A stretch of DNA of 64,000 nucleotides from Nitrospirota bacterium (lineage in GTDB: Bacteria > Nitrospirota > JACRHJ01). This document shows, piece after piece, positions 3,601 through 39,244 of the stretch (positions are counted from its first letter, which is position 1; each line of letters starts with the position of its first letter). Under the pieces are notes generated by a model. The model was not told the origin of the DNA, ran no database searches, and saw only the letters and a program-made list of their open reading frames with translations. Where the stretch lies: NCBI GenBank assembly GCA_963733375.1, contig CAVTDB010000003.1, positions 96,001 through 160,000 on the forward strand, written 5' to 3'. The position numbers and the translations under genes were made by a program.

Positions 3601-6600
3601 AGATCAACGAGCTGGCCAGGCGCCCATAGAGTTGCGCGTCGGTTTCCGTGGCGTTGATCTGTCGCAAGAGCACCTGGCCGTGCGTCCATGCCATATCGAA
3701 GACACGGTCCGCGAGACGCCGGTCCTGATATTTCTCGACAAGCCCCAGGCATGCCTCCCGGTTTTCACCAATGCCTGTGACCATATTTATTGTGACCGGC
3801 TTGTCCGGCTCGATAGTTATCCTGTGCCTTACGGCGACGATGGGGTCGAGAACCGAGCCCTGGCTGCCTGAGAGCGTCCCCGACGGGTTTGAAGTATCGT
3901 GCATGGCCTGCGGGTCGGCGACCGTATTGCCCCGGCCTATGAACCGCATGCGGTCGGTTTCATAGGATGCCTCTCCTGGCGTCCGCCCCGTGCACGGCCA
4001 TCAGGTGAAACATCCAGGGCGGCTCTTCGTCGATGGAGCGGGGCCGGCGCGTGCAGAGTATGGCGCCCTGCTCGTCAATGATTTCCGTCTGGACAAAGAG
4101 GTTGCTGAACGCCGGATGCAGTGCGTCCGACGCCTGCGATGCAAGGACCACTTCCGCGTAACTCGTTATATCGATCTCCCTGCGCGTCTGTGAGCGGTTG
4201 GTAATCGTGATCCGGCGCAGTTCTATGTCGTCCTCGGGCGAAACGGTAATCTCCGTATGCGTCTCAATGTTATTGTCCGTACGGCGGAACTCCGCCCGCG
4301 CTTCCGAAAAAATCGCTTCATACTTCTTTGGCCGTTTAAGCGTAGGCTGATACGCGGTTGACCAGAACTCTCCGCTCGCCACGTCGCGGATGTAGCAGAA
4401 CGTGCCCCAGTTATCGCAGGTACTGTCTTCGCGCCAGCGTGTGACCGCTATATCTTTCCACCTGCTGTAACCGCCTCCCGCATTGGTGACCATCACGTGG
4501 TACCGGCCGTTAGACAATAACTGCACCTCCGGTACCGGCGTATTGGGGCTGCCAAGTACGCGCACGGGCATCTCTATTCCGCTTGACGCCGTCCGTATCT
4601 CTGAAATCTCGGCGGTTTGCGAATAAAACGCCGTGGCCTTAGGCACACGCTCCTGGAGCAGCAGCATGGTCGCCTGGAACCCAGGGTCGGACTCGAACCG
4701 CTTCTGCATCTGACCGTCCAGGAGCAAACAGGCCAGCGAGAGGAAGCTCATACCCTGGTGATGCGCCATGAAGGACCGCACCACCGCGCTTGACTGTCCG
4801 CGCGGCAGGCGGGAAGGCGTGTAGTCTATCGCCTCATAGAAGCCATACCGGGTTTCAAGGCCTTCGGCCGCGAGCCGCTGCAGGTTTAAGCATGCTTCCT
4901 CGGGCGCCACCATCAGGGCAAGGGCCGAAGCATAAGGAGCAACTACCAGGTCCTCGGCGAGACCGCGTTTCAGCCCAAGGCCGGGCACGCCGAACGCCCG
5001 GTACTGGTAGTTTAAATGCACATCGATCGTGTTGAAGCCGGACTCCGACATGCCCCACGGCACCCTGCGCTTCTTCCCGTATTCGACCTGCGCGGCCACG
5101 GCCGCCTTATATGTCTGGTCGAGCAGCGTGTTTTCATACGTCGGCATCACCAGGAGCGGCATCAGGTACTCAAACATCGAGCCGCTCCATGAGAGTAGGA
5201 CCGGGTCCCCACCGGTGGCGGTGAGAAGGCGTCCCAGAGCGAACCAGCTCTCCTGCGGCAGTTGTCCCTGCGCAATCCCGATGAAACTGCAAAGCCTGGC
5301 TTCAGAAGCTAATAGATCGTAAAAACTCTCATCCAGCCTCCGCTCGCCGACGTTATATCCGATGGATAATAAATGACGGGCCTTGTCGAACAGAAAGTCA
5401 TATTCCATGCGTGCGAACTCGCCGCACTGCAGCGCAAGCCGCTCTATCGCCGCGATCCTCAAGCCGGCGCGCCGGCTTGCCTCTTTGATAAGCCCTTTAA
5501 GCTCATCATCGATTGCCGGCGGCAACTCATCCTCAAGGGCGGCCAGTTGGCGCAGCGTCGGGATTCCGGGTAACGACCTGGAAGTTATCAGGAGAATCCG
5601 GCAGCAATATCCACGGCGCGAGAAACTCCAGCTCATCGAGGGCGGCCTGGCACTGAGCGACGAAGGCACGCGCCCACCACGCCGCCTGGCCATCATTGAC
5701 CGCACCGGCGCTACCCTGGGCGTCAATGCCGGCGACCACTTCCGCGGCGGACTTTGCCAGTTGTTCAAGGCACAGCCTTGCCGCCGCAAGATTATCGGGC
5801 GGGCATTTATACGCTGACTCCATATCCAGTTTAAGGCGGGCGAGCTGGGCTTGAGCGGCCCCATTCGCCGCGTCCGCGAGAACCCGGACGGTATCGCCCA
5901 AGCCGTCGAACAACCTCGCTCCCAGTATCTTCTGGTCGGCAAGCGCCAGCAGGCCGGGCCGCAATGTAAGAAGACTGCCTGCAAGGTTCCCGCTGTCCAC
6001 CGATGAAATATAGGTGGGCAACAGCGGCTTCAGGGACTTTGTATCGTACCAGTTATAAAAATGGCCCCGGTATTTTTCCAGGGATTCCATCGTCTTAAAC
6101 GCGTTTTCAGTGCGTTCGATGAGTTGCCCGGTTACAATATAGCCGAAATCATGCGCGGATAAATTCGATAGCAGCGCAAGCCCCATGTTTGTAGGCGAAG
6201 TGCGATGGGCGACTACGGAAACGGGATGCTCCTGAAAGTTATCAGGCGGCAGCCAGTTATCTTCCGGACCTACGAATGTCTCAAAAAACGCCCACGTCTT
6301 CCTGGAAAGATTCCGTAGAAAAATATTCTGGTCAGCAGTCAGCCTTGCTTCGCGCCGGGCGAGCGGCCGGCTGATCCACCACGCGATAAAGGGTGATGAA
6401 AACCACAGGCCCAATAAGGGTGCGGCCATTCCCAACGCGGCCGGCCTTGAAAGGGCAAGATAGACCGCTACGGCAGTCGCAATTATGGGGGCTATCCACA
6501 TTGACCTGAAGGTGGCGGCGAGGCTGGTGCGCCCGGTGTTGCCCGATGCATTCCATTCAAGAAGCCGTTTATGCGTCAGCAGCATCCGCCACACGGTGCG

Positions 6601-9354
6601 CAAGATCGCATCCAGACTGTAAAACGCCTCATAAGGCAGACAGGCGAGCGTAAATGCAGCCTGGGCAATGCGCATGCCGGTAGAACGCCCCGCGGCAGAG
6701 AGGTGCTGACCAAGAAGCACATCTCCCGGCTTCCGAAGAAGATCAAGGATAGAGGGAATCAGAGAAGGGAGCAGGATGATCCCTAAAACCGACAAGGTCC
6801 AGAAAAGCGGCATCGCCAGGACAGTCCAGCCAAGCAGCAGAAGGAGAGTCAACGCCACTGGCACGAGACTGCGCCGAAGGTTGTCCAGAAGCTTCCAGCG
6901 GGACAGCATCGAGAGCGGGTTCTTTTGAAAGCGGGAAAGGGCTGCCCGGGACGCCGGGCAGCAGCCACCTTACAAGCTGCCAGTCCCCGCGAATCCAACG
7001 ATGCCGGCGGCTCACGTCCGCGCTGTAGCCGGACGGATATTCCTCGTACACCATAACATCGCTCTGAAGCCCCGCGCGCGCGTAACATCCTTCCAGCAGG
7101 TCGTGGCTGAGTATACGGTTCTCGGGGAAGCGTCCATCCAGCGCCAGCTCGAATGCGTCGACGTCATAGATGCCCTTGCCTATGAACGACCCTTCCTGGA
7201 ACAGGTCCTGGTAAACATCCGAGACAACACGCGTATAGGGATCGATTCCCGGCTCGCTCCCGAACATGCGCGCATACCTCGAACGGTTCGTGCCGGGCAG
7301 GCTGACGGCCACGCGCGGCTGAAGGATGCCATATCCCTCGCAGACGCGCTGCTTGTCCTGGTCGTACCGCGCGCGGTTCAGGGGGTGCGCCATCGCACCC
7401 ACAAGCTGCCAGGCCGAGTCGCGCGGCAGCTGCGTGTCAGTGTCAAGGGTGATCACATACTTAACGCTTGATAATACCGCCGTGTCGCCTACTATGAGTG
7501 AAAAGCGTTCTTTTGCGACGCCATGTTCACCGGCGCGCAGTAAGGCGTTTAAGTCCGAAAGCTTGCCGCGCTTACGCTCGTATCCCATCCAAATACGGTC
7601 CTGGGGATTCCATCGGCGCGGGCGATGGAAAAGGAAGAACGCGTCGCCCTTTGAATTCCCGTATTTTTCATTCAGTTCTTCGATTCTCTGACGGGCCAGC
7701 AGCACAAGAGCTTCGTCCTCGGGCAGCGTTTCCTCGGCTGCGTCCCGAAAATCAGTCAGCAGGCCGAAGTGCAGGTTGTCGTCACGATTTGCCAGGAACC
7801 TGACTTCCAGCGCCTCGACCAGGTCCTCGATGTTCTGAGCGCTGATGAGCATGGTCGGGACAACCGTCAAGGTACGCGACTGTGGCGGTATGCCTTTGGA
7901 GAAGTCCATCCGGGGCAGCGGATGCGGTGCCGCGAGCAAAGTGGCCAACCAGTTCACCAGGGCCACGGCCAGATGACTTGCGCACAGAAGCGAGAGGATG
8001 CCCGTCAGCCCGAGCGCCCAGCCGTATAGCCCGCCGGCATGCGCCTTGGATAACATGAACCACGTGGGTACCGCTGTAATCAGCACGATGGCGCCTATAT
8101 ACAGCAGCAAGGGAAACCGTGAGGCCGATTTCCGAAGGGCCTCAAAGACGGATAAGCGTACTTCCGCCAGTTGCTCAAGCTGTTGACGCCCCTTGTCTAT
8201 CAGGTAATAGCCGACATGTACCGCATTTTCATGCGCAAGCCTGATCGCTTCGGCCGCAACTTCGCTCTCCGATAGCCGGCTCTTCTTAGCCGTTTTCTCC
8301 ACGGCGTGGCGGTAACGGTCGCGCGTAACAAAATCCATCTTGCCGTAAACGCCGCCTGTGTCCTCCCGCAGGGTCTGTTCGACAATGCTCATCGTCTCGA
8401 CGAACTCGCGCCAGTCCATTGCGCCAAGGAAGCGGAGGCTGCCTATACTGTTACTCATCGAGACCTGGTCGGCGGCCTGCTGCTGGTTCTCCGACTGCAC
8501 CAGTTGTTTGATCGTCAGGCCGGACTCGGACAGTTGCTGCTCAATCCAGGTAAGCGGCAATGCGAGGGCGGGGCCCTGTCCCTGGAGCCGGCGCGTGAGT
8601 TCCGCAACAAACGAACTCACCATCGGCGGGCCGGACCGCGCCATGTCGGCAATCACAAGGATCAGGCTCTTCGGGTCCTTCTCCGCGGTTTGGGTCAGCA
8701 GGTCAGCCCAGTAATCGGCGCTGTTCCGGTCGAGCCTGTCAGTGGCGATCCGGACCGCGACTCGCCGGAGGTTCTCGATCAGCGCCAGGCGCAGCATGAT
8801 GGGGATTGCCCACAATTCGCCTAATTTCAGGCTGGTTACTCGTCTGATAGGCCTTTACAAAACCGATGAGGCTCTCCGGGTCTACCCGCCCGTCTCCATG
8901 TGAAATAGTTTCCAACGCAATGTCATATACGCGAGGGAGACCGGCTGAAGGACCATCTTGCAGGCGAGGCAGTTCCCGGCTGTAACCTTTCGGCAGATGC
9001 CTTCTGGCTGTTCGGACCTGCTCCTCTATCAGGTAGAAATTGTCGAGCAGCCATTCCCCCGCAGGTGTGATCCTGCGGTCTGTCTTGACAGCCTCGGTCA
9101 GCAGGTTGCGGGTTTCCAACAGCACGCTTTCATTCTCAGCCAGGCGCGTCAGCAGCTGCTCCGGGGCATGGCCCTGGGCTCAGCCTGTGCGAGTTCGCGA
9201 GCGTCTTGCCGTGCTGCTCCATCTGATAGGCGCTGAACAACTCCGACCGAAGCGGCTGCTCGTCGCTTGCACGTTTTTGCGTTAAGATATTTTTGCTGAG
9301 GCTCGCACCCAGATGAGACAGGCGCCCGAGAATAGTTTTGCTACTCTTCTTCAC
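670..9354 (-). CDS. ndvB: Cyclic beta-1,2-glucan synthase (GT84 + glucoamylase-like + GH94 phosphorylase domains), split by ~8 frameshifts
   Basis: Colinear ORF pieces with WLLDNFYLIEEQ, WMGYERKRGKL, ILSHDLLEG, RTSPTNMGL, SWSGSMFEYLMP, YYQSGGAFGFRDQLQD, GSGDWNDGMN, PGVRENGGQYTH, GGWTWYTGSAGW. Confidence 0.92.
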
Positions 9355-22839: not shown

Positions 22840-25800
22840 TTAATCGGCAGCGAAAGTCACCAATATCGTATGAGGCGTGGTTACATTAATGAACGTATAG
22901 GAAGTTGTCGTGGTCACAGGGCTTCCGTCCACCGTGAGTGTATCTACGTGATATCCGGCTTTGGGGATGATGGTGTAAGTCTGGTCCGCACCGCTGGTCA
23001 CCGCTCTCACGCCGGGAGGAGAAATGTTGCCGTTTGCGCCCGCTGTGGCCGTGATCGTCGGGATAAACGCCGCGGCTATAGTGTGGTCAGCCTGCACATT
23101 CGAGAATGTGTAGCCGGTCAGCGCCCCTTTGGAAGTCCCGTCGACCGTCGTGCTGCCCATCGCATAGCCGCTCGCTGGTGCAATGGCAAAGGTCTGGCTG
23201 GTGCCCTGCACCACTGCGGTGGTCCCAGGCGTTATGCTGCCGTTTGCGCCCTGGGTAACCGTTATGGTAATCGTCGAATTCTGCGCGAAGGTCACCGATA
23301 TCGTATGAGGCGTGGTTACATTAATGAACGTATAGGAAGTTGCCGTGGTCACAGGGCTTCCGTCCACCGTGAGTGTATCTACGTGATATCCGGCTTTGGG
23401 GATGATGGTGTAAGTCTGGTCCACGCCGCTGGTCACTGCTCTCACGCCGGGAGGAGAAATGTTGCCGTTTGCGCCCGCTGTGGCCGTGATCGTCGGGATA
23501 AACGCTGCGGCTATAGTGTGGTCAGCCTGCACATTCGAGAACGTGTAGCCGGTCAGCGCCCCTTTGGAAGTCCCGTCGACCGTCGTGCTGCCGACCGCAT
23601 AGCCGCTCGCTGGTGCAATGGCAAAGGTCTGGCTGGTGCCCTGCACCACTGCGGTGGTCCCAGGCGTTATGCTCCCGTTTGCGCCCTGGGTAACCGTTAT
23701 GGTAATCGTCGAATTCTGCGCGAAGGTCACCAATATCGTATGAGGCGTGGTTACATTAATGAACGTATAGGAAGTTGCCGTGGTCACAGGGCTTCCGTCC
23801 ACCGTGAGTGTATCTACGTGATATCCGGCTTTGGGGATGATGGTGTAAGTCTGATCCGCACCGCTGGTCACTGCTCTCACGCCGGGAGGAGAAATGTTGC
23901 CGTTTGCGCCCGCTGTGGCCGTGATCGTCGGGATAAACGCCGCGGCTATAGTGTGGTCAGCCTGCACATTCGAGAATGTGTAGCTGGTCAGCGCCCCTTT
24001 GGAAGTCCCGTCGACCGTCGTGCTGCCCATCGCATAGCCGCTCGCTGGTGCAATGGCAAAGGTCTGGCTGGTGCCCTGCACCACTGCGGTGGTCCCAGGC
24101 GTTATGCTCCCGTTTGCGCCCTGGGTAACCGTTATGGTAATCGTCGAATTCTGCGCGAAGGTCACCGATATCGTATGGGGCGTGGTTACATTAATGAACG
24201 TATAGGAAGTTGCCGTGGTCACAGGGCTTCCGTCCACCGTGAGTGTATCTACGTGATATCCGGCTTTGGGGATGATAGTGTAAGTCTGGTCCACGCCGCT
24301 GGTCACCCCTCTCACGCCGGGAGGAGAAATGTTGCCGTTTGCGCCCGCTGTGGCCGTGATCGTCGGGATAAACGTCGCGGCTAACGTGTGGGCCGTCTGT
24401 ACATTCGAGAATGTGTAGCTGGTCACTGCCCCTATCGAGGTCCCGTCGACTGTCGTGCTGCCCATCGCATAGCCGCTCGCTGGTGCAATGGCAAAGGTCT
24501 GGCTGGCGCCCTGCACCACATCGATTGTACCAGGCGTTATGCTGCCGCCAGTACCGGCTGATGCGGTTATTGTCAACATCGATGTCGCTATAGTCATCGT
24601 GCCGATCGCGCTGCCTTGGTAATTGGCGTCGTTTATCGTGCCTACTACCGTATAGGTCCCGACCGCGGTCGGAGCTGTTGATGTGCCGTTATAGGTAAAG
24701 CTTACCGAGAGGCCCACAGGGCTGGTGGTAGCGCTTGCGCTCTTCGCGGTGCCATCGCAGGTTTGGCTCAGGCCGCAGAGCGTTACCGTGGCCGTACACT
24801 GGGCTATCGTCATAGTGCCCAAGGCGCTTCCCTGGTAGTTGGTGTCGTTGATCGTGCCCACTACCGCGTAGGTCCCGGCCGCAGTCGGGGCTGTCGATGA
24901 GCCGTTATAAGTGTACGTGACTGCGAGGCCCACAGGGTTGGTGGTAACCGTGGCGCTCTTCGCAGTCCCGTCGTAGCTATGGCTCAGGCCGCCGAGCGTT
25001 ACCGAGGCCGTCGCCTTGGCAATAGTCATCGGGCCGGTCGCGCTGCCCTGGTAGTTGGTATCGTTTATCGTGCCCACTACCGTATAGGTCCCGGCCGCAG
25101 TCGGAGCGGTCGATGAGCCGTTATATGTGTACGTGACTGCAAGGCCGTTCGGAGTCGTGGACACCGTGGCCGGCTTCGCAGTTCCGTCATAGGTTTGGCT
25201 CAGGCCGCTTAAGGTTACGGTAGCCGCAGCCTGCAGCACGTTTATCGTCACGTCCTTGGACGCAGTGTTGTAGTCGGTGGTGTCCGTCGGGGTAAAGGCC
25301 GCTTGCAGGGTCTGGCCGCTGCCCGCATTCAAGACCGCCCCGGCAGCCGGAGTGTAGGCAAATGAGCCGCCAACCGGGGTGCTGGCGTTCAGCTCGAGTC
25401 GCGCCCAGTGCCGTGCCGTAGGTGATGTCGGCGGGGCTGTTCCAGGTAATGACTGGAGTCGCCTTCGCTATAGTCAGCGTGCCCGAAGCGGTACCTGTAT
25501 AATTCGTATCGTTGACAGTGACGGCTACAGCATAGCTCCCGGCAGCAGTCGGAGCGGTCGATGAGCCGTTATAAGTGTACGTGACTGCAAGGCCACCCAC
25601 AGGGCTGGTGGTGGCCGTGGCGTTCTTAGCGGCGCCGTCGTAGCTCTGGCTCAGGCCGCCGAGCGTTACCGTCGCCGGCGCCTGGGAAACGTTTATCGTC
25701 ACGTCCTTGGACGCAGTGTTGTAGTCGGTGGTGTCCGTCGGGGTAAAGGCCGCTTGCAGGGTCTGGCCGCTGCCCGCATTCAAGACCGCCCCGGCAGCCG

Positions 25801-28800
25801 GAGTGTAGGCAAATGAGCCGGCCACCGGGGTGCTGGCGTTCAGCTGAGTCGCGCCCAGCGCAGTGCCGTAAGTGATGTCGGCGGGGCTGTTCCAGGTAAT
25901 GACTGGAGTCGCCTTCGCTATAGTCAGCGTGCCCGAAGCGCTACCTGTATAATTCGTATCGTTGACAGTGACGGCTACAGCATAGCTGCCGGCAGCAGTC
26001 GGAGCGGTCGATGAACTGTTATAAGTGACGGTGACCGAAAGGCCGTTCGGAGTCGTGGACACCGTGGCCGGCTTCGCAGTTCCGTCATAGGTCTGGCTCA
26101 GGCCGCCGAGCGTTACCGTCGCCGGCGCCTGGGAAACGTTTATCGTCACGTCCTTGGACGCAGTGTTGTAGTCGGTGGTGTCCGTCGGAGTGAAGGCCGC
26201 GTGCAGGTCCTGGCCGCTGCCCGCATTCAAGACCGCCCCGGCAGCCGGAGTGTAGGCAAATGAGCCGCCAATCGGGGTGCTGGCGTTCAGCTGAGTCGCG
26301 CCCAGCGCAGTGCCGTAAGTGATGTCGGCGGGGCTGTTCCAGGTAATGACTGGAGTCGCCTTCGCTATAGTCAGCGTGCCCGAAGCGGTACCTGTATAAT
26401 TCGTATCGTTGACAGTGACGGCTACAGCATAGCTCCCGGCAGCAGTCGGAGCGGTCGATGAACTGTTATAAGTGACGGTGACCGAAAGGCCGTTCGGAGT
26501 CGTGGACACCGTGGCCGGCTTCGCAGTTCCGTCATAGGTCTGGCTCAGGCCGCTTAAGGTTACGGTAGCCGCAGCCTTCAGCACGTTTATCGCTACGTCC
26601 TTTGTCGCGCCGTTGTAGTCAGTGGTGTCCGTCGGGGTAAATACCGCGTGCAGGGTTTGGCCGTTGCCCGCATTAAGGACGCCACCCGCCGGAGTGTAGG
26701 CAAATGAGCCGGCCACCGGGGTGCTGGCGTTCAGCTGAGTCGCGCCCAGTGCCGTGCCGTAGGTGATGTCGGCGGGGCTGTTCCAGGTAATGACTGGAGT
26801 CGCCTTCGCTATAGTCAGCGTGCCCGAAGCGGTACCTGTATAATTCGTATCGTTGACAGTGACGGCTACAGCATAGCTCCCGGCAGCAGTCGGAGCGGTC
26901 GATGAACTGTTATAAGTGACGGTGACCGAAAGGCCGTTCGGAGTCGTGGACACCGTGGCCGGCTTCGCAGTTCCGTCATAGGTCTGGCTCAGGCCGCTTA
27001 AGGTTACGGTAGCCGCAGCCTTCAGCACGTTTATCGCTACGTCCTTTGTCGCGCCGTTGTAGTCAGTGGTGTCCGTCGGGGTAAATACCGCGTGCAGGGT
27101 CTGGCCGTTGCCCGCATTCAGGACCGATCCGGCAGCCGGAGTGTAAGTCAGCGTGCCAGGCACCGACGCTGTCGCGTTAAGCTGAGTCGTGCTCAATGCC
27201 GTGCCGGACACAATGTCGGCGGGGTTGCTCCAGGTGATCGTCGGAGTCGCCTTGGTGATCGTCAGGTTCGCCCCGACGTAGGTCAGGGTGTAGTTGCTAC
27301 TCAGCGCGAGCGTGCCCTGCTGTATAGCATGCGTCCCTACTGACTCGCCTGACGCTCGGGTCAGACTTCCGGTGAAGCTGTCGCCGTTCACGAGCGAGCC
27401 GCTGGTAATGGAGTAGGTGAGCGCCGGGTCCGAGTCGCCGTACGTCTTGCTCTTGGCGTCCGCGGTGACGCTAACAAGCCGCTTGGCGATAGTTAGCGTG
27501 CCGGTATCGTTTGTGCTGCCAGCGCTTACAGTGAAACTATCATTTGTGACAGCCGATGCTGCACTTGTGGTCGTTACTGTAAGCGTCGATGTTTTGTTGG
27601 AAGAGTCCACCGTTGCCGGGCTGAAGACCCCGGTGGCTCCGGAAGGCAGTCCTGAGATGGTCAAGGTGGGACCGGTACCGCTACTGTACCCCGACGTGCT
27701 GATGGCGTAAGTTACGGATCCGCCTGTCCCGTACGTAAGCGTGCCTGTTTGATTACCGACCGAAACCGAAGTAACGTGATACGTTGCCGCCACATAAGGC
27801 CCGACGTACGGGCCGCCGCCGGGCGCGCCGGCAGGCTCTATCTCGTCGGAACCTGTATTCAAAACGGCATTAGCCATGTTGATACGGCCGTTGCCAGTTT
27901 CGTCCGTGGAGTTGCCCGCAAGGTCGGCGGAAGCCGCCATCCTCGACACCACCACCCCGTTTGAGATGGTAGCATCGTATGCCCGCAGGTAGCCCGCCAC
28001 ACCCGCGGCTATGGCCGCCGAGGCCGACGTGCCGCTAACTGCGGCATAGGCATTATAATCAAGGCTGGTTGTGACAATGCCGACGCCCGGGGCCGCAAGG
28101 AAGACGTCCTTCCCGTAATTGCTGAAGGAGGCAAGCGCGTCAGAGGAATCTGTCGCGGAAACGCCGATGACGCCCCTGTCGCCCGCCGGATACGTCGGGT
28201 CCGAAATCGCATCATTACCGGTGGCGGCCACAAGGACGACGTTCTTCGACCAGGCATAATCTATGGCGTCCTGGAGGTTCTGACTGAAGCCTGGGTTGCT
28301 GAAACCCATGAGGATAACGTTGGCCCCGTGGTCCACCGCATACAGGATACCCGCTATGATATCGGCGTCCTTGCCGGTGCCGTCCGCGCCCAAGACCGTA
28401 ACGGGCATTATGCTGACGCCTGAAAAACAAACGCCGGTGATACCGATATTATTGGATACGCCCGCTACTATGCCCGCAAGCGACGTGCCATGTCCATTGG
28501 GATCGGTCGTGCCGCCGGAACCGTCTATTATAGACGTCCCCGGGACTATATTGCCGGCAAGGTCCGGGTGAGAGGCGTCCACGCCCGTATCGAGTATTGC
28601 GACCGTAGAGTGATAAAAAGGGAGAGACACACCATAAACGGAGTCCCAGCCGATCCTGGGGAGATACCACTGGCCTTCGTAATAAGGGTCCGGCGGAGTG
28701 AGTGTTTCGACCTTGCGCGTCTGATTTACCTCGACGCTTTCTACCTGCTGGTCGGATTGATAATTGAGGGTTACGGTGGCCAACTGGTCAGCCGTAACTT

Positions 28801-29026
28801 CTATGACATGCAGTCTCAGCGCCGGGATCGATGAGGTTTCCACGCCGCCGTCGCGTGCTACTATAGCCCCCACATCGACATATGAAAGCCCGGCAACCGT
28901 TTTTACTATTAAAGAGGTTTTCGGGGGGTCTGGAGGATCGGCGGCCCATCCGGCAGGAAGATAAGATAGAAAGAACAAAATGGATAATAACGGCAGTACT
29001 ACAATTAGCCTCTTGAACAGGCCCAT
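22840..29026 (-). CDS. ~2060-aa secreted S8 subtilase with MBG/Ig-like and divergent InlB-like repeats; frameshift near 25390
   Basis: Signal peptide; catalytic ILDTGVD, HGTSLAG, SGTSASA; VTADAKSKTYGDSDP MBG repeats; ITATAGANGNISP repeats. Confidence 0.88.
22860..24560 (-). repeat. ~4 near-identical 435-bp tandem coding repeats
   Basis: tg(a/g)ggcgtggttacattaatg recurs at 22871, 23306, 23741, 24176. Confidence 0.92.
25200..27260 (-). repeat. ~4.5 near-identical 444-450-bp tandem coding repeats
   Basis: gtaatgactggagtcgccttcgc recurs at about 25446, 25896, 26343, 26787. Confidence 0.9.
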
Positions 29027-30003: not shown

Positions 30004-31735
30004 TCAGGAAGCAAAGAGCTTTCTGTCTGTGTACTTAACGTCGTCCTCATTGAAGTAGGGCTTAGCCCAGGCTGATGTCTTCTTGAGCACAAACGGTTTT
30101 GTATTGCCTTCCTTGTCAGTCGTCTTTGCCCGGAAGTGGAAGTGGTCCACGAGCCTCACGGCCTCTATCGCAAAGACCGTGGCGATGTCCTCGTCCTTTA
30201 TGCAGATCAGGTTGTCTCCGTTAGACATTTCCCCGCCGAGCGCGAGGTTGGACGAGCCGAAATATACACAGTTGTCAGGGGTGTTGAAGTCCATTACGAC
30301 GAACTTGTGGTGTATGTTGTGCGCCTTCACGCTTTCTTCCTTGTCGAAGGGTGGCGGCAATGCGCCAGCAAGACTCTTCGCGTTTACCAGTATGCCTCTC
30401 CTGGATCCCGGCTTGTAAAGCGAAACGGCCTTCGTGGAGTCAGTAACGCCGTAGGAGAACACGTCCTCCCTGTTTTGTATCTCCCTCAGCGCCGGATACA
30501 CGGAACCCCCGGTATTCTCCGCCAGCGACATGATCGAAAAAAGCACCGACTTTGTCTTCGGACTCCCGATCCTTTCAGAAATGCCGTCAAGAATGCTTGT
30601 TGCGAAATCCTTGTTATGAGGCGCGAAAGTGATCGAAGTGGAACCGCCGTTGAATTCAAAACACTCGGTCGCGCATTCGCACTCGCTGAAGTTCTTCATG
30701 TTCTCCCAAGAAGCCTCGAAGACTTTCCCGTAACACACGGCGACATCCTTGTCTTTGAAGACGGCCACGTGGTTCGCGTTCACACAGAGGCCCGTGACGG
30801 AGAAGTTTGTGGAGCCGGTGAGTACCTTTGCCGCATTGCCGCCCTTCTTGACTATTATGACTTTATCATGCGCAAACCTTTTGAACTTTCCACGCATTAT
30901 TTTGGAGTCGCTGGTCCCGGCGGCTTTCTCGAACCTCTTCTCGAAATCGGTCTCGGGCGAGTCGTCCGTCCCGTGTCCAGTTTTTTCGCCGTCTTCCGTG
31001 GAAGTTGAATTGTCCAGGATCATGCGTATCCTGCCCTGGCTGGCAAGTTTCAGGCACAGGTCCGCAATGACAGGCTCGTTGAAGTCGTAAGCGAACATGT
31101 CCACTTTGAGGGATTTGTCGGCCAGCACCTCGTTTAATATGTCCAGGATTTCTTTACGCGCAGTGAAACCAAGCCAAGTATATACATCTTCATAGGTAAA
31201 GTCATTCCCGTCGTTAGAGCAAAAGTGTTCGGACGTATCGAATAACCATCCATCACCTTCCTTGATGAAGGCGTCATTCTGGCCGAACCAGGCTGAGCTA
31301 GGCCTGCGACGTCAGAAATGACCGAGTGAAGGCGAGTTCAACGTTCTTCGAAGCGAACCTGTCAACGAGGATCTCGGCGGTGGCGGTCAATGAACTATCC
31401 AGGTCTTCAAGCTTCCCGCTTTCTTCGTCCCAATAGCGCGGCGTGACGTAGTATTTATAATTGCCGTATTCCGGATTGTTGAGCTTTTGATGAAAATCGC
31501 CCGGTACATGTATCCAACGGAACTTCTGGAATGGAGATTCGTTGGAGTGTTTTTCTTCCTTGGTGCCATCGAAGTTGACGCGGTTCATCAGGAAATACCG
31601 GCTTCCGGATGGTGTGCCTATCTCGATAGAGAAACCCACGAAATTATCCTTCATGAGCACGCCATCGATATCGAAGGCGAGCAGCGTCATGGCATCCCCT
31701 CTGTATGCTTTCACCGATACTCTGTTATCAGGCAT
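30004..31735 (-). CDS. Phospholipase D-superfamily protein (two HxK motifs), one +1 frameshift near 31298
   Basis: AHDKVIIVK..TGSTNFS and IHHKFVVMDF..GSSNL; VKAYRGDAMTLLAFD N-terminus; removing one G rejoins the frames (SQAYSAWFGQ). Confidence 0.85.
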
Positions 31736-31834: not shown

Positions 31835-32869
31835 TTATTGCGAGCCATTCGAAAATTCATAAAACGGGTCTATGAATTCCTGAGACCCGTAGAACTCTTT
31901 CGAAGCGGCGGTGCAACCGCCTTTGCATTTATCTTTAAGGGGATGTTCACACTCGATGCATTTTTGCGGCACGGCGCTCCAGAACTGCCTGCATTTCTTT
32001 CCAACCACCAACTCCTTGAAGCTTTTTTCCCTCAGGTCCCCCAGGACCAGCGAAGAGTGGTTGCACGGCCTTAACATGCCGTCGCAGCCTATCGTGTAAT
32101 AGGAGTCAGTTCCTCCTCTGGGGCACCACCCGAAAGTTAGGTCTGGATATTTTGTCAAGTCCAGTACACAAGGCGGAATTGGAACGGAACTGAACACCGG
32201 CATGCCGTATTGTCTTACAGCCTCCTGCGTAAGACTAAGACTTTCCTCAAGCATCTGAACTGGCGGCATCAATTCCCTTGCACGGGACTTCATGCCGCTG
32301 CTGAGGTTGACACGATTGTACATGAAGCCTATCGCGCCAACCCCGAGGGCGAGTTCGTATACATTCATAATATCGAGAGCGTTGTATCTTGTTGCTACGA
32401 ATACCGTCGTCAGGTAGGAACCGTGCCGATTGATACGAGAAACGTTCCTTACGACTTTGTCGAACACCTTTGCGCCAGCCAGTCTGTCGTGAAGGTTTGC
32501 ATTGTGCCCCAGGAGCGTGACTTCGAACATTATTCCCGATGGCAGTTTGGCAAGCAGTGAATCTGTTAGCAAAGCACCATTGGTAATGACCGTTGGTTGA
32601 ATGCCGTCATCAACAAGGTCTCCAAGTATCTGGGGTAGATCTTTTCTTAGCAACGGCTCCCCCCCTGAAAGTACAACATATCGTAATGGCACGGATTCTT
32701 TCACCCTGTTTATGAGGATACGTATTTCCTCTCTCGACAGCGTTCCAGAGTCTGTACCGCTAACGACTCTGCCTTCCTTGCGCCAATAATTGTAGCAATG
32801 CAGGCAGGCGTTGTTGCACTTCGGGGTCAGCTCAATACTTATAAAACGAGGCTCACCGCTTTTTTGCAC
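31835..32869 (-). CDS. Radical SAM/SPASM protein (PqqE-like maturase)
   Basis: ELTPKCNNACLHCY; SGGEPLLR; CPRG..RPC..CIEC..CKGGC SPASM. Confidence 0.9.
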   Translation of the reverse strand: MQKSGEPRFISIELTPKCNNACLHCYNYWRKEGRVVSGTDSGTLSREEIRILINRVKESVPLRYVVLSGGEPLLRKDLPQILGDLVDDGIQPTVITNGALLTDSLLAKLPSGIMFEVTLLGHNANLHDRLAGAKVFDKVVRNVSRINRHGSYLTTVFVATRYNALDIMNVYELALGVGAIGFMYNRVNLSSGMKSRARELMPPVQMLEESLSLTQEAVRQYGMPVFSSVPIPPCVLDLTKYPDLTFGWCPRGGTDSYYTIGCDGMLRPCNHSSLVLGDLREKSFKELVVGKKCRQFWSAVPQKCIECEHPLKDKCKGGCTAASKEFYGSQEFIDPFYEFSNGSQ

Positions 32870-32871
32870 AT

Positions 32872-33283
32872 CTATCCTTTAATCTCTTTGATCATCTGTC
32901 TGCCCAGGGCAGCGGGAATCTTAGCGTCTTTGACAAGCTTCTTCACCGCATCCATCCTAACGCCACGGTCAATTTCAGGAATTTGACCCTGAGCCACTAT
33001 ATAGCAAGTGACGTGGTAACAACGGAACTTCGGGAGGTTAAATATAACGGCGACTATGACGGCCTGCTCATCGACTAACACCTTGGCTTCCGTAGTTTTC
33101 GCAAGCATCTTTTCAAGCGGCTCAGGAGAGGATATTCAGGTTAGCCTTCAACTCGCTCTTTTTCCCATCTACCGCGACATAAACCTTGTTACCTGTTATC
33201 AATATCTTGCCCACTTTCGCTTTGGTACCATACTTCTTTTCGAGTTCTTCCACACTCATTTCGGCCAGTTTCACTTCCGGCAT
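32872..33283 (-). CDS. ~136-aa hypothetical protein with CYHVTCY motif, frameshift near 33125
   Basis: RBS GGAGG + ATG 33283 (MPEVKLAEMSVEELEKKYG...) joins the 32872..33108 ORF; 2 nt from the next rSAM start. Confidence 0.65.
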
Positions 33284-33343: not shown

Positions 33344-34397
33344 TTATGTAAAGTCGCATCTTGGTCGATTTGGATAGCTGCAATAGCGGCTCTCAAAAAG
33401 GGAACCACTGTTGAAATAGCTTGAACCCCTGCAACCTCCCCGGCATATGTGGCCTTTGTCACATCCGGCGCAGGCTCCGGCAAGCATGCTCACATCGAAA
33501 TTCCGGTTGTAAGCAAAGTTCCCATCCTTTGTCCATATCTCTTCGAAGGACTCATGGCGCAGGTTACCTTCGATGAATTTTTCAGAATAGATCGACTCGC
33601 ATCCTTTGACATTTCCGACGCTGTCGATGCCGACCACCCGTATCCCCGCTTTGCAGCCGTTCCAGGCTGAGATGGTACCAGGTAGACTACGGATGTAAAA
33701 CTCATTCTTGTCGAAGTAGCCAATATCGTCACCTGCATATATTCGCATTAGGCCCCTCCGACGTTTTTCTCGGATAAAATCGGTGATTTCTCCAACCCTC
33801 TCTGGAGCGAGGAGAATATCCTTTGCGCCCAGCCATGTTGCCCATGCCCGTGACTATCTGAAGCTGCCAGATTTCCACTCGGTTATCAACAAGTAGGTCA
33901 TATAGCTCGTCAAGATCTTCGGCGTTAAAGTCAACGAGGCTCGTTACGATGGCCATCGGTATATTTTCGCGGTTCAGTCTATTGAAGGCGGCAAGGACTT
34001 TTTGAAAAGAACCTTTCTTTCTTCTCATCCGATCATGGTTCTTTTCCATCCCATCAAGAGAAATACCTACATTGTTCAGTCCCGCCTCCCTTATCGAGGC
34101 TACCTCTTCGTCACCAAATAAAAACGCATTTGTGATGATGTTGGTTTTCGCTCCTCCATTTGACATCCTCCTTGCCACCTTTTCCCATCCCTTGTAGAGG
34201 AAAATTTCACCGCCTATGAAGGTGATCTGTCGGCAGCCTAAGCGAAGGAGATCATCTACTATGGGCAGACACTCCTCTACAGTCAGTTCGTTAGGCCGTG
34301 CCTTCGCGGCGGACGAACCGCAATGGAGACACTTCATGTTGCATTGAAGTGTCATTTCCCAGACGGCATTTTCCGGCACATATTCGGTTAAATTCAC
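33344..34397 (-). CDS. Radical SAM/SPASM peptide maturase, PlpX/splicease-like; frameshift near 33820
   Basis: AVWEMTLQCNMKCLHCGS; IGGE; WQLQIVTGMGN; GDDIGY; WNGCKAG..GIDSVGNVKGC; CAGC..ICRGGC. Confidence 0.8.
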
Positions 34398-34416
34398 CGT
34401 TCTGCCTCCATTCGAT

Positions 34417-34454
34417 AAGCCGCGCGGCGGGGCCGCTGCCCGCGCCGCAGGCTT
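34417..34454 (-). other. GC-rich intercistronic stem-loop between precursor and maturase
   Basis: AAGCCTGCGGCGCGGG...CCCCGCCGCGCGGCTT, no U-tract. Confidence 0.5.
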
Positions 34455-34464
34455 AGATTTTCCT

Positions 34465-34749
34465 TTATACGCGGACCATGTACATTGCACGTATTACGTC
34501 CTGGTGAAGTTCAATGAAATCACAATCTACTCCTGCTTCATCCTTTATTTCTCGCATCTGCCAGCCGGTTAAATACATCCGTTTATACTTGTCATGGGTC
34601 GGAATACCGTATCGCAAAACCGGGTGCGGCGTCGTAGGAACATCGAGTTCATAAGTATTGCATTCGACGCCAAGAAAATCCTTGATCATCTGCTTTTGCC
34701 AGTCCTCAAGATAAAGGATTATTTTCTTCGCACCATCCACTGTCGGCAT
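34465..34749 (-). CDS. 94-aa putative RiPP precursor with two internal leader/core modules
   Basis: Strong RBS AAGGAGGT; repeats YLxxWQxxxIKDxxGVxCxxxEL ending in LRYGIP and AMYMV. Confidence 0.75.
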   Translation of the reverse strand: MPTVDGAKKIILYLEDWQKQMIKDFLGVECNTYELDVPTTPHPVLRYGIPTHDKYKRMYLTGWQMREIKDEAGVDCDFIELHQDVIRAMYMVRV

Positions 34750-34819
34750 GATCAACCTCCTTTTAAAATGTTTTGAGACATTACGTCAAATTCAGCCGAG
34801 GCAAAATTACCCGGCAGGC

Positions 34820-35942: not shown

Positions 35943-36338
35943 TCATTGCCATTGGCTGGTCTCGACAGGTGTCCCGACCGGAGTTACATCGTTAGAGAGA
36001 TCCGATGCGTCGCTCGTCCCCGCTGAATTAGTCGCCATAACAACAAAATTGTAGGTGGTTCCATTTGTAAGACCTGTTACAATTATTGGGCTCGATTGCC
36101 CAATAGCCCTAACCGTAGCTACACCGGGGCCTGAGATAACTATATATGAAATGATAGGACTGCCGCCGTCATCCATAGGAGCGGCAAAGCTCACAGTAGC
36201 CTGCCCGTCGCCAGCCATCGCTTGAACATTGGTCGGCGCGCTAGGGACTGTTGAGTCCGCAAAACAGAGTTGGCCGACAACCAGAAGAGCAAAAACTAAT
36301 AGCATAGTCCAAATAGCGCTTAAAGAATGAATCTTCAT
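35943..36338 (-). CDS. Secreted fibronectin type III domain protein
   Basis: Signal peptide; VPSAPTNVQAMAGDGQATVSF..DGGSPIISY..VTGLTNGTTYNF. Confidence 0.85.
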   Translation of the reverse strand: MKIHSLSAIWTMLLVFALLVVGQLCFADSTVPSAPTNVQAMAGDGQATVSFAAPMDDGGSPIISYIVISGPGVATVRAIGQSSPIIVTGLTNGTTYNFVVMATNSAGTSDASDLSNDVTPVGTPVETSQWQ

Positions 36339-36413
36339 AATTCCTATCCTCCTTTTTATCACGAGAATTCCCATACGATTATTATCCCCGGCTGTCCGTT
36401 TGAACCGGTATAC

Positions 36414-36663: not shown

Positions 36664-37140
36664 TTGCTTTTGGGGGAATGCCCTGAATGGTTAAGGGAGA
36701 TAGTCACCTTCGCAATCTATACCGGGATGAGACGTAACGAGATACTATCCCTTAGATGGCCCCAGGTGGACTTAGAGCGGCAGGCGATAACGCTCCTTAT
36801 AACCAAGAATAAGGAAAAGCGCACCGTGCCAATAAATGAAAAGGTTCTGACCCTTTTGAGGGAAAAGGTCTCATCGCGGAAAAATTCTGGTTACGTTTTC
36901 CCTTCGGAGGCGGGCACGATGATAGAGGGGCACAATTTGAGCCGTGCATATAGGCTGGCAAGGGAAAAGGCAGGGCTTAACGATGTCCGTTTCCACGATC
37001 TCCGCCATACTGCGGGCAGCCGGATGGTTCAAGCTGGTGTTGACCTCTATTCAGTGAGTCTGATCCTGGGCCATAAAACCCTAGCTGTTACAAAGCGGTA
37101 TGCTCACCACAATGTTGAGAGTCTGCGCCGTGGCTGTTGA
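36664..37140 (+). pseudogene. Tyrosine integrase catalytic domain, N-terminally truncated
   Basis: TGMRRNE, FHDLRHT, LGH, RYAH; no core-binding domain upstream. Confidence 0.85.
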
Positions 37141-37741: not shown

Positions 37742-39244
37742 CTAATGGACGTATCCGATGCCGTTCAAAGTCAACGTGTCGTTACCGCCGTATATATTGC
37801 TGTCGCTCGCGGAGAGGAACAGCTTCACTGAGTAAGTTCCGGCGGGGTAGATCAGACCTCCCCATCCTCCCCCCCCCGTGAACTGGTACGCGCCGCCAGA
37901 AGAAATACCTACGGCGCCAAGCCTTGTTCCGTCCGAGTTGTAGAGGAACACCTCTGCGTCGTCGTAAGTATCTGATATTCCCAACATATTCACCGTGATG
38001 TTGCCCGCGTCAGTGGTCGTGAACGATACAGCAGTGGATGTCGTGCCGCTGCCAGATCCGTCGTCTGTGACCGAGGCAGTCTTGCTCGTGTCCATGCTGA
38101 AGTTACCGACAGTCTGCTGATAAGGACAAGATTGGGACACGGCTACCGTGGAGTATCCTTTTCCAGCCGATATTTTAGTTATCCCGGTGAAGCCGCTCTG
38201 AACAGGATTCCATTTGTCGGTAGTAGTTCCATCGCCAAGCTGGCCAAGATCGTTACGTCCCCAGGCCCGGACTGTGCCGTCCGATTTCAGGGCAACAGTA
38301 TGATACGCTCCCCCGGAAACCGAGACTACGCCGGTAAGCCCGGGCACCTGGATGGGGGAAAGTCTGTTAGTGTTGGTCCCGTCACCTATTTGGCCGTATT
38401 GATTACTTCCCCACGCCCAGACCGTACCGTCCGACTTCAGGGCAACTGTAAAAAGATACCCTCCGGTAATGGATACCACGCCAGTAAGCCCGGGCACCTG
38501 GACGGGCGAATGTTCGGTAGTGGTAGTCCCGTCGCCCAACTGCCCATACTGATTATCTCCCCACGCCCAAACCGTGCCGTCCGACTTCAGGGCAACTGTA
38601 TGCTGATACCCTGCGGCAATAGATACCACGCCGGTAAGCCCAGGCACCTGGACGGGCGAATATCTGGTAGTGGTAGTCCCGTCGCCTAGCGGGCCATTAT
38701 AGTTATATCCCCAGTCCCAGACCGTACCGTCCGACTTCAGAGCAAACGTATTATAATCTCCCACGGCAATTGAGACTACGCCGGTAAGCCCGGGCACCTG
38801 AACGGGCGAAAGCCTGTAAGTCGTCGTCCCATCGCCAAGCTCTCCTTCTCCTTCCGCATTTCTTCCCCAGTCCCAGACCGTACCGTCCGACTTCAGGGCA
38901 ACCGTATGATAACATCCCGCGGTAACCGAGATTACGCCAGTTAGCCCGGGCACCTGAATGGGTGAAGTCGTGGGATTGTTATTCCCGTCACCAAGCTCCC
39001 CATCTGAATTAGCTCCCCACGCCCAGACCGTGCCGTCCGATTTCAGGGCAACTGTATGCCATCCCCCTTCAGAAATTGAGACTACATCGGTCAACGGCAC
39101 CTCCACGGGGGTAGTGGTATTAGTCCCGTTGTTAGCCCACTGGCCAGTAGCCCAGACCTCCCCCGCCTCGGCCCTAACAGTCCCTATGAAACCTAAGAAG
39201 AGGATCGCCGTCAAAACTGAAAAAACCCACACTGCTTTTTTCAT
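37742..39244 (-). CDS. Secreted RCC1/BLIP-II-type beta-propeller repeat protein
   Basis: Signal peptide; six HTVALKSDGTVWAWG..GQLGDG..SPVQVPGLTGV repeats. Confidence 0.92.
   Translation of the reverse strand: MKKAVWVFSVLTAILFLGFIGTVRAEAGEVWATGQWANNGTNTTTPVEVPLTDVVSISEGGWHTVALKSDGTVWAWGANSDGELGDGNNNPTTSPIQVPGLTGVISVTAGCYHTVALKSDGTVWDWGRNAEGEGELGDGTTTYRLSPVQVPGLTGVVSIAVGDYNTFALKSDGTVWDWGYNYNGPLGDGTTTTRYSPVQVPGLTGVVSIAAGYQHTVALKSDGTVWAWGDNQYGQLGDGTTTTEHSPVQVPGLTGVVSITGGYLFTVALKSDGTVWAWGSNQYGQIGDGTNTNRLSPIQVPGLTGVVSVSGGAYHTVALKSDGTVRAWGRNDLGQLGDGTTTDKWNPVQSGFTGITKISAGKGYSTVAVSQSCPYQQTVGNFSMDTSKTASVTDDGSGSGTTSTAVSFTTTDAGNITVNMLGISDTYDDAEVFLYNSDGTRLGAVGISSGGAYQFTGGGGWGGLIYPAGTYSVKLFLSASDSNIYGGNDTLTLNGIGYVH

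Follow-up and report, generated by a model that had tools for sequence, protein, structure and literature searches.

What does a radical S-adenosylmethionine (rSAM) enzyme do to the small peptide encoded directly ahead of it? This question is raised by a locus of a Nitrospirota bacterium (assembly GCA_963733375.1), within a 64,000-nucleotide (nt) stretch of contig CAVTDB010000003.1 (positions 96,001 to 160,000) that we call the window and number from its first letter. On the minus strand of the window, a strong ribosome-binding site, an open reading frame (ORF) of 94 amino acids (aa), a stem-loop, and an rSAM/SPASM gene follow one another, as a first-pass annotation of the DNA had described, and this observation is confirmed. 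Its interpretation of the pair as a splicease with a two-site substrate is partly supported, with loss of C8H9NO from tyrosine (Tyr) predicted from the sequence. We consider it fairly probable that the pair is a PlpX-like tyramine-splicing system of only two genes, lacking the usual Y protein, that acts on a duplicated and self-recognizing mini-protein at Tyr47 and probably also at Tyr90.

Few enzymatic reactions lead from a ribosomally made chain to beta-amino acids and ketoamides; tyramine splicing is among them and has already been applied in protein labeling and protease-inhibitor discovery. Spliceases excise C8H9NO at XYG sites (PMC11414181, PMC10533398, PMC11626197, PMC9811515, PMC11002830, PMC10849128, PMC5995677). 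The same literature counts 27 confirmed spliceotide pairs and 939 predicted systems (including PMC11414181), with products that inhibit serine (Ser) and cysteine (Cys) proteases (PMC11414181; PMC11626197). Cyanobacterial type I systems need a Y protein, whereas the available text of Richter 2024 (PMC11414181) describes all non-cyanobacterial spliceotide pathways as lacking it.

The peptide is an internal duplication with two conserved tyrosines

The precursor gene (34465..34749, minus strand) encodes 94 aa plus a stop and starts with an ATG located 6 nt downstream of a Shine-Dalgarno sequence, AAGGAGG, read at 34756..34762 (minus). An identical gene call is present in the protein collection as P0001. 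When the 32-row family alignment was split and its halves were aligned to each other with hhalign, they matched over 37 columns with a probability of 98.1% and an E-value of 8.2e-14, with Tyr47 (RYG) in register with Tyr90 (MYM). The internal duplication noticed in the first-pass annotation is a true one, far beyond chance.

Both halves have the same predicted architecture. The AlphaFold2 model, hhalign, and the site statistics below delimit module 1 as residues 8-50 (34600..34728, minus) and module 2 as residues 54-94 (34468..34590, minus). Module 1 is predicted to form a strand-helix-strand unit (LYLEDWQKQMIKDFLGVEC...YEL) followed by a low-confidence loop closing with R-Y47-G-I-P, and module 2 (KRMYLTGWQMREIKDEAGVDC..IEL) is followed by a low-confidence tail closing with A-M-Y90-M-V-R-V. 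The two Tyr codons lie at 34609-34611 and 34480-34482 (minus). Built from the 32-row alignment, the model had a mean predicted local distance difference test score (pLDDT) of 68 and a predicted template modeling score (pTM) of 0.60. Strand, helix, and strand were predicted at residues 7-13, 16-26, and 32-36 in the first half and at 55-59, 62-72, and 78-82 in the second. The modules reached a pLDDT of 70-86, and both Tyr stretches (42-50 and 86-94) were non-regular with a pLDDT below 50. A Foldseek search of the model against the PDB gave 0 matches at E 0.001 or better, and the ESM Atlas gave unnamed clusters with a best score of 0.83 and no lead.

All 32 candidates picked out of 5.8 billion proteins proved to be members of the precursor family, including the window's own peptide and one 61-aa fragment, and the full-length members span 92-108 aa. 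The two-module form is the norm, since a search for shorter homologs added only a single 40-aa fragment and no single-module forms. No Pfam or NCBIfam family matched the precursor, Nif11 and NHLP leaders included. This agrees with the earlier proposal of a repeated, non-Nif11 leader, and what is repeated is a unit of recognition element plus core. No signal peptide was noticed by eye, with no predictor run.

Site statistics were compiled from 28 precursor-like ORFs of the loci described below plus the 32 proteins, which were deduplicated by their last 70 residues into 57 rows that include a few fragments. Site 1 was Tyr in 54 of 54 rows and site 2 in 52 of 53, with one Asp. The residue preceding Tyr was almost always K, R, L, or M, both at site 1 (52/54: K16, R13, L13, and M10, besides P1 and A1) and at site 2 (49/52: R18, L14, K11, and M6, besides H1, I1, and E1). 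Following Tyr, glycine (Gly) was found in 37 of 54 rows at site 1 (otherwise A6, R5, M3, I2, and W1) and in 31 of 52 at site 2 (otherwise M12, K4, R2, A2, and N1). At +2, site 1 had V15, I14, A10, S7, and 8 others, and site 2 had V in 35 of 52; proline occupied +3 in 37/54 and 28/52 rows, respectively. Thus, Tyr and its preceding residue are constrained, and given these Gly counts, YG is merely the majority state rather than a rule. The first-pass annotation had looked to conservation of both Tyr and YG in the two modules, and only the former held. It had also read AMYMV as a mimic of AMYGV. MYM does align with YG in relatives, but YM recurs often in related systems and is thus no singular mimic, and the window's MYM comes from a precursor sub-clade in which site 2 is consistently Y-M.

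Two Cys residues were conserved as well, Cys30 in all 54 rows and Cys76 in 55 of 56, each inside a conserved and confidently folded G-V-x-C-D strand region. Tandem paralogous precursors had conserved scaffolds and hypervariable loops around the invariant Tyr. A divergent precursor of locus L079 (2527-2967, plus strand of that locus) has two modules with four Tyr sites (MKYAMILP, TLYGVPIP, LKYGIVVP, and MRYGIPPP); it has lost the tryptophan of the WQ motif and retained both Cys. The sites also resemble splice tags proven elsewhere, which include GPIRPLYGLPI and AVAAGYGVVFP (PMC10533398, Table 1). NPIRPLYGIPA of locus L105 and PHPVLRYGIPT of the window resemble the first tag, and VIRAMYMVRV of the window resembles the second, which was engineered (M to G). 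Loops of the form P-x-x-x-Y-G-[IL]-P in the family likewise come close to the published tags.

The enzyme scores best against TIGR03913 and the splicease family TIGR04103 and branches apart from both

We scored eight intact homologs of the enzyme against NCBIfam hidden Markov models (HMMs), including the three families named in the first-pass annotation, TIGR04103, TIGR03913, and TIGR04133 (cut-offs of 725, 591.75, and 425 bits). For eight of eight homologs, the two best matches were TIGR03913 (228-269 bits) and TIGR04103, the PlpX family (217-255 bits). These matches speak for the proposed splicease kinship, although both fall under their cut-offs. TIGR04133 came next at 140-163 bits, and the remaining families reached 140 or less, among them the MftC families (110-125), PqqE (77-99), and the thioether-forming StsB/SkfB (105 or less). 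The window enzyme, which is encoded in two pieces, scored 157.1 + 70.0 bits for TIGR03913 and 147.0 + 65.5 bits for TIGR04103.

With the intact homolog P0034 of locus L002 as phmmer query, 421 of 1.84 billion representatives matched at E 1e-30 or better, and identity fell to 35-47% immediately outside the family. Among the best 150 representatives, taken as one set of 75 listed at E 1e-75 and another of 75 at E 1e-100, a single protein was a curated member of TIGR03913 (P0297, 771 bits), and none passed the TIGR04103 cut-off, where P0279 was highest at 551 bits. From these and other sequences we chose 60 rows for a tree: 12 family enzymes, 18 enzymes from metagenome loci, 6 anchors, and 23 further representatives, with the second rSAM of the window serving as an outgroup on a long branch. 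The anchors (P0279, P0278, P0270, the TIGR03913 member P0297, and others) formed their own clade with a Shimodaira-Hasegawa approximate likelihood ratio test (SH-aLRT) support of 100. The family formed one clade of 14 rows that includes L079 and L105 (SH-aLRT 99), within a sister branch (support 93) that also contains the Tyr-motif clades described below. An earlier anchor-free tree, from which L074 was left out for an internal stop, agrees. The enzyme had been expected to fall in the splicease clade, and the tree instead puts its family outside the clade of the TIGR04103-like and TIGR03913 anchors.

All three motifs highlighted in the first-pass annotation are present in the window enzyme, as AVWEMTLQCNMKCLHCGS, WQLQIVTGMGNMAG, and WNGCKAG...GNVKGC. 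Presumably, PlpX-type spliceases share them (AVWExTLxC..HCGS, WQxQ..MGN, and WxGCxAG..KGC), as that annotation states. In the consensus of 25 neighboring rSAM representatives, the first and third motifs recur along with WQxQ, and PxGR replaces MGN. A sequence search of the PDB with the enzyme profile returned no splicease structure, and its best match was SkfB (E 2.4e-28, radical SAM half).

Neither TIGR04103 nor TIGR03913 had a match over the cut-off in the window's genome or 14 control genomes. TIGR03913 had 0 matches at E 1e-60 in 401 genomes of the window's phylum, a scan that was silent throughout. A third PlpX-like rSAM lies on the same contig beyond the window (G000:C3:239187-240272), with a 383-aa frame scoring 131.8 bits for TIGR04103, 28% identity to P0034, and one TAA reported inside its TIGR03913 match.

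An intact allele of the enzyme gene exists

The whole rSAM/SPASM gene occupies 33344-34397 on the minus strand, with a GTG start at 34397 that was set by alignment to P0034 and a GGAGG ribosome-binding site (34405..34409, minus) 7 nt before it. The first frame (33816..34397, minus) carries the radical SAM domain (PF04055, E 3.8e-27), with its cysteines C19-x3-C23-x2-C26 at 34320-34343, and is 84% identical by tblastn to residues 1-193 of P0034. The second frame (33344..33814, minus; stop at 33344-33346) carries the bridging region and the SPASM domain with its Cys set (PF13186, E 1.3e-6; TIGR04085), and is 83% identical over residues 191-347. C19, C23, C26, and seven more Cys are invariant across 51 family enzymes. 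As the first-pass annotation implied in speaking of a repaired enzyme, the frames are separated by one surplus base at 33815..33816, evident as a frame switch relative to intact homologs at 'aa' between RKGY and LLAPERV.

A 151-nt Logan contig (depth 2.3) of a public soil-metagenome run, X1, spans 33679-33830, lacks one letter at 33815, and has one A>G difference at 33722; runs X2 and X3 contributed no contig. Without the surplus base, the enzyme is an open 350-aa frame with no internal stop and 81.6% identity to P0034. An intact enzyme allele therefore exists, as seen in this single contig of depth 2.3. The window's genome assembly consists of 26 contigs and is 81% complete with 5.2% contamination. 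Long ORFs elsewhere in the window overlap by 146-452 nt: an S8 subtilase with MBG domains (25187-29026, minus) overlaps an MBG/InlB-repeat ORF (22840-25332, minus), and a GH94/glucoamylase ORF (3960-5984, minus) overlaps two family-less ORFs (region 3960-8815, minus). These look like single genes split by indels, a sign that assembly errors may be spread over the window. Given that other large genes look frameshifted, an assembly error is likely for the enzyme gene too, and its frameshift is probably either such an error or a strain variant.

The 67-nt spacer between the two genes (34398-34464) folds into a GC-rich hairpin of ~17 pairs (~34415..34455, minus) with no U-tract after it. Its minimum free energy was -37.6 kcal/mol (z -2.15), and 8 of 200 shuffles folded equally well; the hairpin is real and only modestly unusual for a GC-rich spacer. 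Spacers were considered for 18 precursor-enzyme pairs, two of them too short to fold, and strong hairpins were judged by eye to occur at the equivalent position in at least L002, L003, L004, L006, and L016. A canonical terminator was rejected, as a terminator scan found nothing between the precursor and enzyme genes.

The gene pair recurs in bacteria and archaea without a conserved third gene

We scanned one genome per species across 185,579 species, which gave 44 pattern matches, 19 of them encoding a relative. Judged by record title, 11 of the 19 loci are bacterial (three 'delta proteobacterium' metagenome-assembled genomes (MAGs), Acidobacteriaceae, Desulfobacca, Treponemataceae, two Ignavibacteria, Clostridia, Thermoguttaceae, and Desulfomonilaceae) and 8 are archaeal (three Methanoperedens, three Methanosarcina, Methanosarcinales, and Methanothrix). 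In an all-against-all ORF clustering of these loci and the window, the precursor preceded the rSAM gene in a shared orientation at all 20 loci. No third gene was conserved across the 20 loci, including no protease or exporter, and the one large protein family in common was shared by only 3 of them. Other recurrent ORF 'families' were rejected as shadow frames over the precursor and enzyme genes on the basis of their coordinates. Absence of a separate PlpY or recognition element gene, as the first-pass annotation had it, is borne out by these loci, but it is not a new feature according to the available text of PMC11414181.

Tandem precursor copies with differing loops were found in L005, L011, L012, L013, and also L105. 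The enzyme of L005 is cut by the contig end. In L017, a Methanosarcina MAG, the enzyme gene (2127-3165) occupies three reading frames with two frame changes.

Enzymes of neighboring clades also adjoin proteins with tyrosine motifs

We asked what stands beside the enzymes of the closest representatives outside the family, using 80 metagenome loci whose encoded enzymes are related to these representatives and 41-51% identical to P0159. The query was a 7-row neighbor alignment, a 25-row alignment being too diverse. Upstream frames were counted for the motif Y[GAMS]x[PQ], which was defined post hoc after reading them, and 5 of the 80 loci had too little upstream DNA, leaving 75. A same-strand frame with the motif was present upstream in 57 of 75 loci, with two or more motifs in 30 (up to 8) and none in 18. 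The background was 97 motifs per 336,303 residues of all other frames.

Sites with YM, YA, and YS were common beside the neighboring enzymes. NF033662 acidic double-disulfide repeat proteins carried GELYGIPF repeats, with up to 8 GxLYGIPF sites. By eye, KYMAQM, DYMAQM, and LYMAPM repeats occurred in proteins starting with a lipobox-like LAGC or GGC, and peptides from human gut metagenomes ended in ...PPIMAVYAAP. Examples from the sister clades (L028-L107) include L033, L046, and L065-L073; L029, L030, and L038; and L083 and L090-L104. The neighboring enzymes scored like the family on TIGR04103 and TIGR03913 (227-317 and 201-270 bits). Two of the 80 loci belong to the family itself: L105, with two precursors of which one has NPIRPLYGIPA, and L079. 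The sister clades may be a large uncharacterized radiation of Tyr-directed maturases.

Comparison with known systems

Like the Pleurocapsa PlpA/PlpX/PlpY and PcpAXY systems (type I, TIGR04103), the window pair has an enzyme of the broad rSAM/SPASM clade with TIGR04103 among its two best HMM matches, Tyr in an x-Y-G-[hydrophobic]-P context resembling published splice tags, and more than one potential site per precursor, as in PcpA with its two (PMC11414181). Unlike type I, the enzymes reach 217-255 bits against a cut-off of 725, and their ~350 aa cover positions 5-344 of the 412-position model with no C-terminal extension. The pair also has neither a Y protein nor a Nif11/NHLP leader, and its precursor is built as a duplicated strand-helix-strand protein in which the Gly after Tyr is often replaced across the family. 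TIGR03913, the 'GDL motif peptide-associated radical SAM/SPASM maturase' family, is the equal-best match at 228-269 bits, and its member groups with TIGR04103-like proteins in the tree. However, its cut-off of 591.75 is not reached, and the match covers positions 15-354 of 477.

The window pair shares its two-gene organization with the Rheinheimera systems RhaA/RhaX, RcsAX, and RasAX ('type II'). RhaX is activated by the leader helix of its precursor (PMC11414181), and these binary systems yield ketoamide protease inhibitors (PMC11414181; PMC11626197). A helix is thought to activate the enzyme in Rheinheimera precursors, and the window precursor has helices predicted at residues 16-26 and 62-72. 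Compared by description only, the family differs from these systems in its two leader-like modules, its lack of conserved processing genes, and its hosts, which are strictly anaerobic bacteria and archaea.

The nearest enzyme relatives, at 35-47% identity, are the PlpX-like rSAMs beside Tyr-repeat proteins, none of which is characterized to our knowledge. Their site grammar is similar (x-Y-[GAMS]-x-[PQ], including YM). In contrast to the compact two-module cytoplasmic protein of the window, the presumed substrates beside them are long repeat proteins or peptides with a single site, several of which by eye start with a lipobox-like sequence (LAGC, GGC).

A model of tyramine splicing and its alternatives

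We propose that the 94-aa product would be the substrate of the adjacent rSAM/SPASM enzyme. Each strand-helix-strand half would act as a docking or activating element, and the flexible stretch after it would present one Tyr, flanked as [K/R/L/M]-Y-[G, less often M/A/R/K]-[V/I/A]-P. At Tyr47, and probably at Tyr90 as well, the enzyme, which is remotely related to PlpX, would cut out a tyramine equivalent (C8H9NO, -135.07 Da), and the carbonyl of Arg46 (Met89) would be joined to the former Tyr carbonyl to give alpha-keto-beta-Arg and alpha-keto-beta-Met. With neither a protease nor an exporter conserved in the vicinity, the product would presumably remain a small protein that bears two ketoamides and could plausibly inhibit Ser/Cys proteases in a reversible covalent manner.

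Several findings weigh against tyramine splicing. In the available text of the cited papers, splicing is demonstrated for XYG sites alone, yet Gly is replaced in 31-40% of sites here, and site 2 of the window itself has Met in its place. Cys30 and Cys76 are as conserved as Tyr, and splicing gives no explanation for them. No curated cut-off is reached, so that neither TIGR04103 nor TIGR03913 includes the enzyme, and its family lies outside the clade formed by the TIGR03913 member P0297 and the TIGR04103-like representatives. Kinship to spliceases rests on HMM scores, since no validated splicease sequence was among those compared. Moreover, the window's copy of the enzyme is frameshifted as assembled, and the frame-restoring evidence is one contig of depth 2.3, possibly from the same sample as the window.

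The position of the enzyme under both cut-offs and outside the anchor clade, and a +1 residue that is not fixed as Gly, would also suit another radical chemistry at the same Tyr sites, such as a C-C or C-O crosslink, beta-hydroxylation, or epimerization. Other SPASM enzymes modify Tyr differently, with MftC and PqqE among the weaker matches, and we know of no experimentally characterized member in the family's branch of the tree. Nevertheless, we consider such chemistry rather unlikely: TIGR04103 and TIGR03913 outscore every crosslinking family by ~90 bits or more, the site context matches proven splice tags, and Tyr is followed by no conserved crosslink partner (+2 is V/I/A/S), a narrow set of residues occurring only at -1 (K/R/L/M). 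It is very unlikely that the conserved Cys are modified instead, as in thioether-forming sactipeptides or ranthipeptides, with another role for the Tyr loops. Their near-invariance and the match to the thioether-forming SkfB as the best solved structure fit this idea, but the Cys belong to a folded strand region rather than a variable core, the sactipeptide families score 105 bits or less, far under their cut-offs, and many YMAQ/YMAP repeat stretches of the sister clades appeared by eye to contain no Cys.

The peptide might also be a partner or regulator of an enzyme that acts on something else, given that it is predicted to fold (pTM 0.60), that no protease or exporter is conserved, and that the predicted complex was weak with no contacts given. 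The natural pair of locus L001 (P0037 + P0002) was predicted from alignments together with SAM and three 4Fe-4S clusters; its median score over three runs was 0.57 ('weak support') versus 0.00 for the best of three controls, with a partner pLDDT of at least 66 and runs agreeing in at least 5% of contacts. When the method was calibrated, 58 of 80 solved complexes reached the mark, as against 2 of 110 mismatched pairs; only 7 of the 80, but both mismatches, did so at 0.60 or under. These counts apply only roughly here, where our own alignments and added ligands were used. As weak evidence, the score also counts in favor of the splicing model. A partner or regulator role is nonetheless highly improbable in view of the hypervariable loops set around an invariant Tyr on conserved scaffolds, the doubling of Tyr sites to four in L079, and the proteins with up to 8 Tyr motifs adjoining sister-clade enzymes. 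Finally, the cassette could be a decaying remnant in the window's genome, with an enzyme that is truly frameshifted and inactive. The surplus base is there in the window, the region is patchy and accessory with a truncated integrase nearby, no cassette was found in two same-genus and three same-family genomes, and the L017 enzyme gene has two frame changes. We regard decay as unlikely, however, because a short-read contig lacking the base restores the 350-aa frame, the two halves still match an intact homolog at 83-84% identity and keep every invariant Cys, and other window genes (subtilase/MBG, GH94) overlap as assembly indels typically do.

If tyramine splicing is correct, the pair would be very compact, with an enzyme of ~350 aa and a substrate of ~94 aa bearing its own duplicated recognition unit, and it would bring sites beyond Tyr-Gly and hosts among archaea as well as bacteria. 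It would thereby offer a smaller toolkit of splice tag and enzyme, a test of the Gly requirement, and a protein-sized ketoamide product. A literature search that did not cover the predicted-system survey of Scott 2022 found no paper on the precursor family; if that survey already lists it, the gain would be smaller, namely a documented example with site statistics. A bolder extension of the model is possible but doubtful. Rather than a cleaved peptide, the product might be an intact, folded, pseudo-dimeric mini-protein with two alpha-ketoamides, next to K/R/L/M side chains selected as protease P1 residues. It would then be a gene-encoded, bivalent reversible-covalent protease inhibitor made within the cell, and horizontal transfer would carry its cassette between anaerobic bacteria and the methanogens or methanotrophs among the archaea. 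The enzyme and its sister radiation might then splice Y-M, Y-A, Y-S, Y-R, Y-K, and Y-G alike, making XYG a special case of an X-Y-x code.

Surroundings of the cassette

The cassette looks like an accessory, mobile trait, given that P0034 had no match at E 1e-30 in the two same-genus and three same-family genomes and that a truncated integrase is nearby. This tyrosine integrase (36664-37140, plus) matches Phage_integrase at positions 22-170 of 172. Other flanking genes (37742-39244, 35943-36374, and 30004-31128, all minus) encode RCC1-repeat, fn3, and PLD-like proteins. A second peptide-plus-rSAM cassette lies directly downstream (31835-33283, minus). It comprises a 53-aa ORF (33122-33283) with a strong AAGGAGG and the sequence KKYGTK, a 78-aa ORF (32872-33108), and a 344-aa rSAM/SPASM enzyme (31835-32869) with weak generic NCBIfam matches of ~75 bits to AhbD/NirJ2. 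Searching for this second cassette in 20 relatives gave 36%-identical matches in 2 and nothing closer. The GC content around the splicing cassette is 0.44-0.50, compared with ~0.60 at 24-28 kb, consistent with an accessory island.

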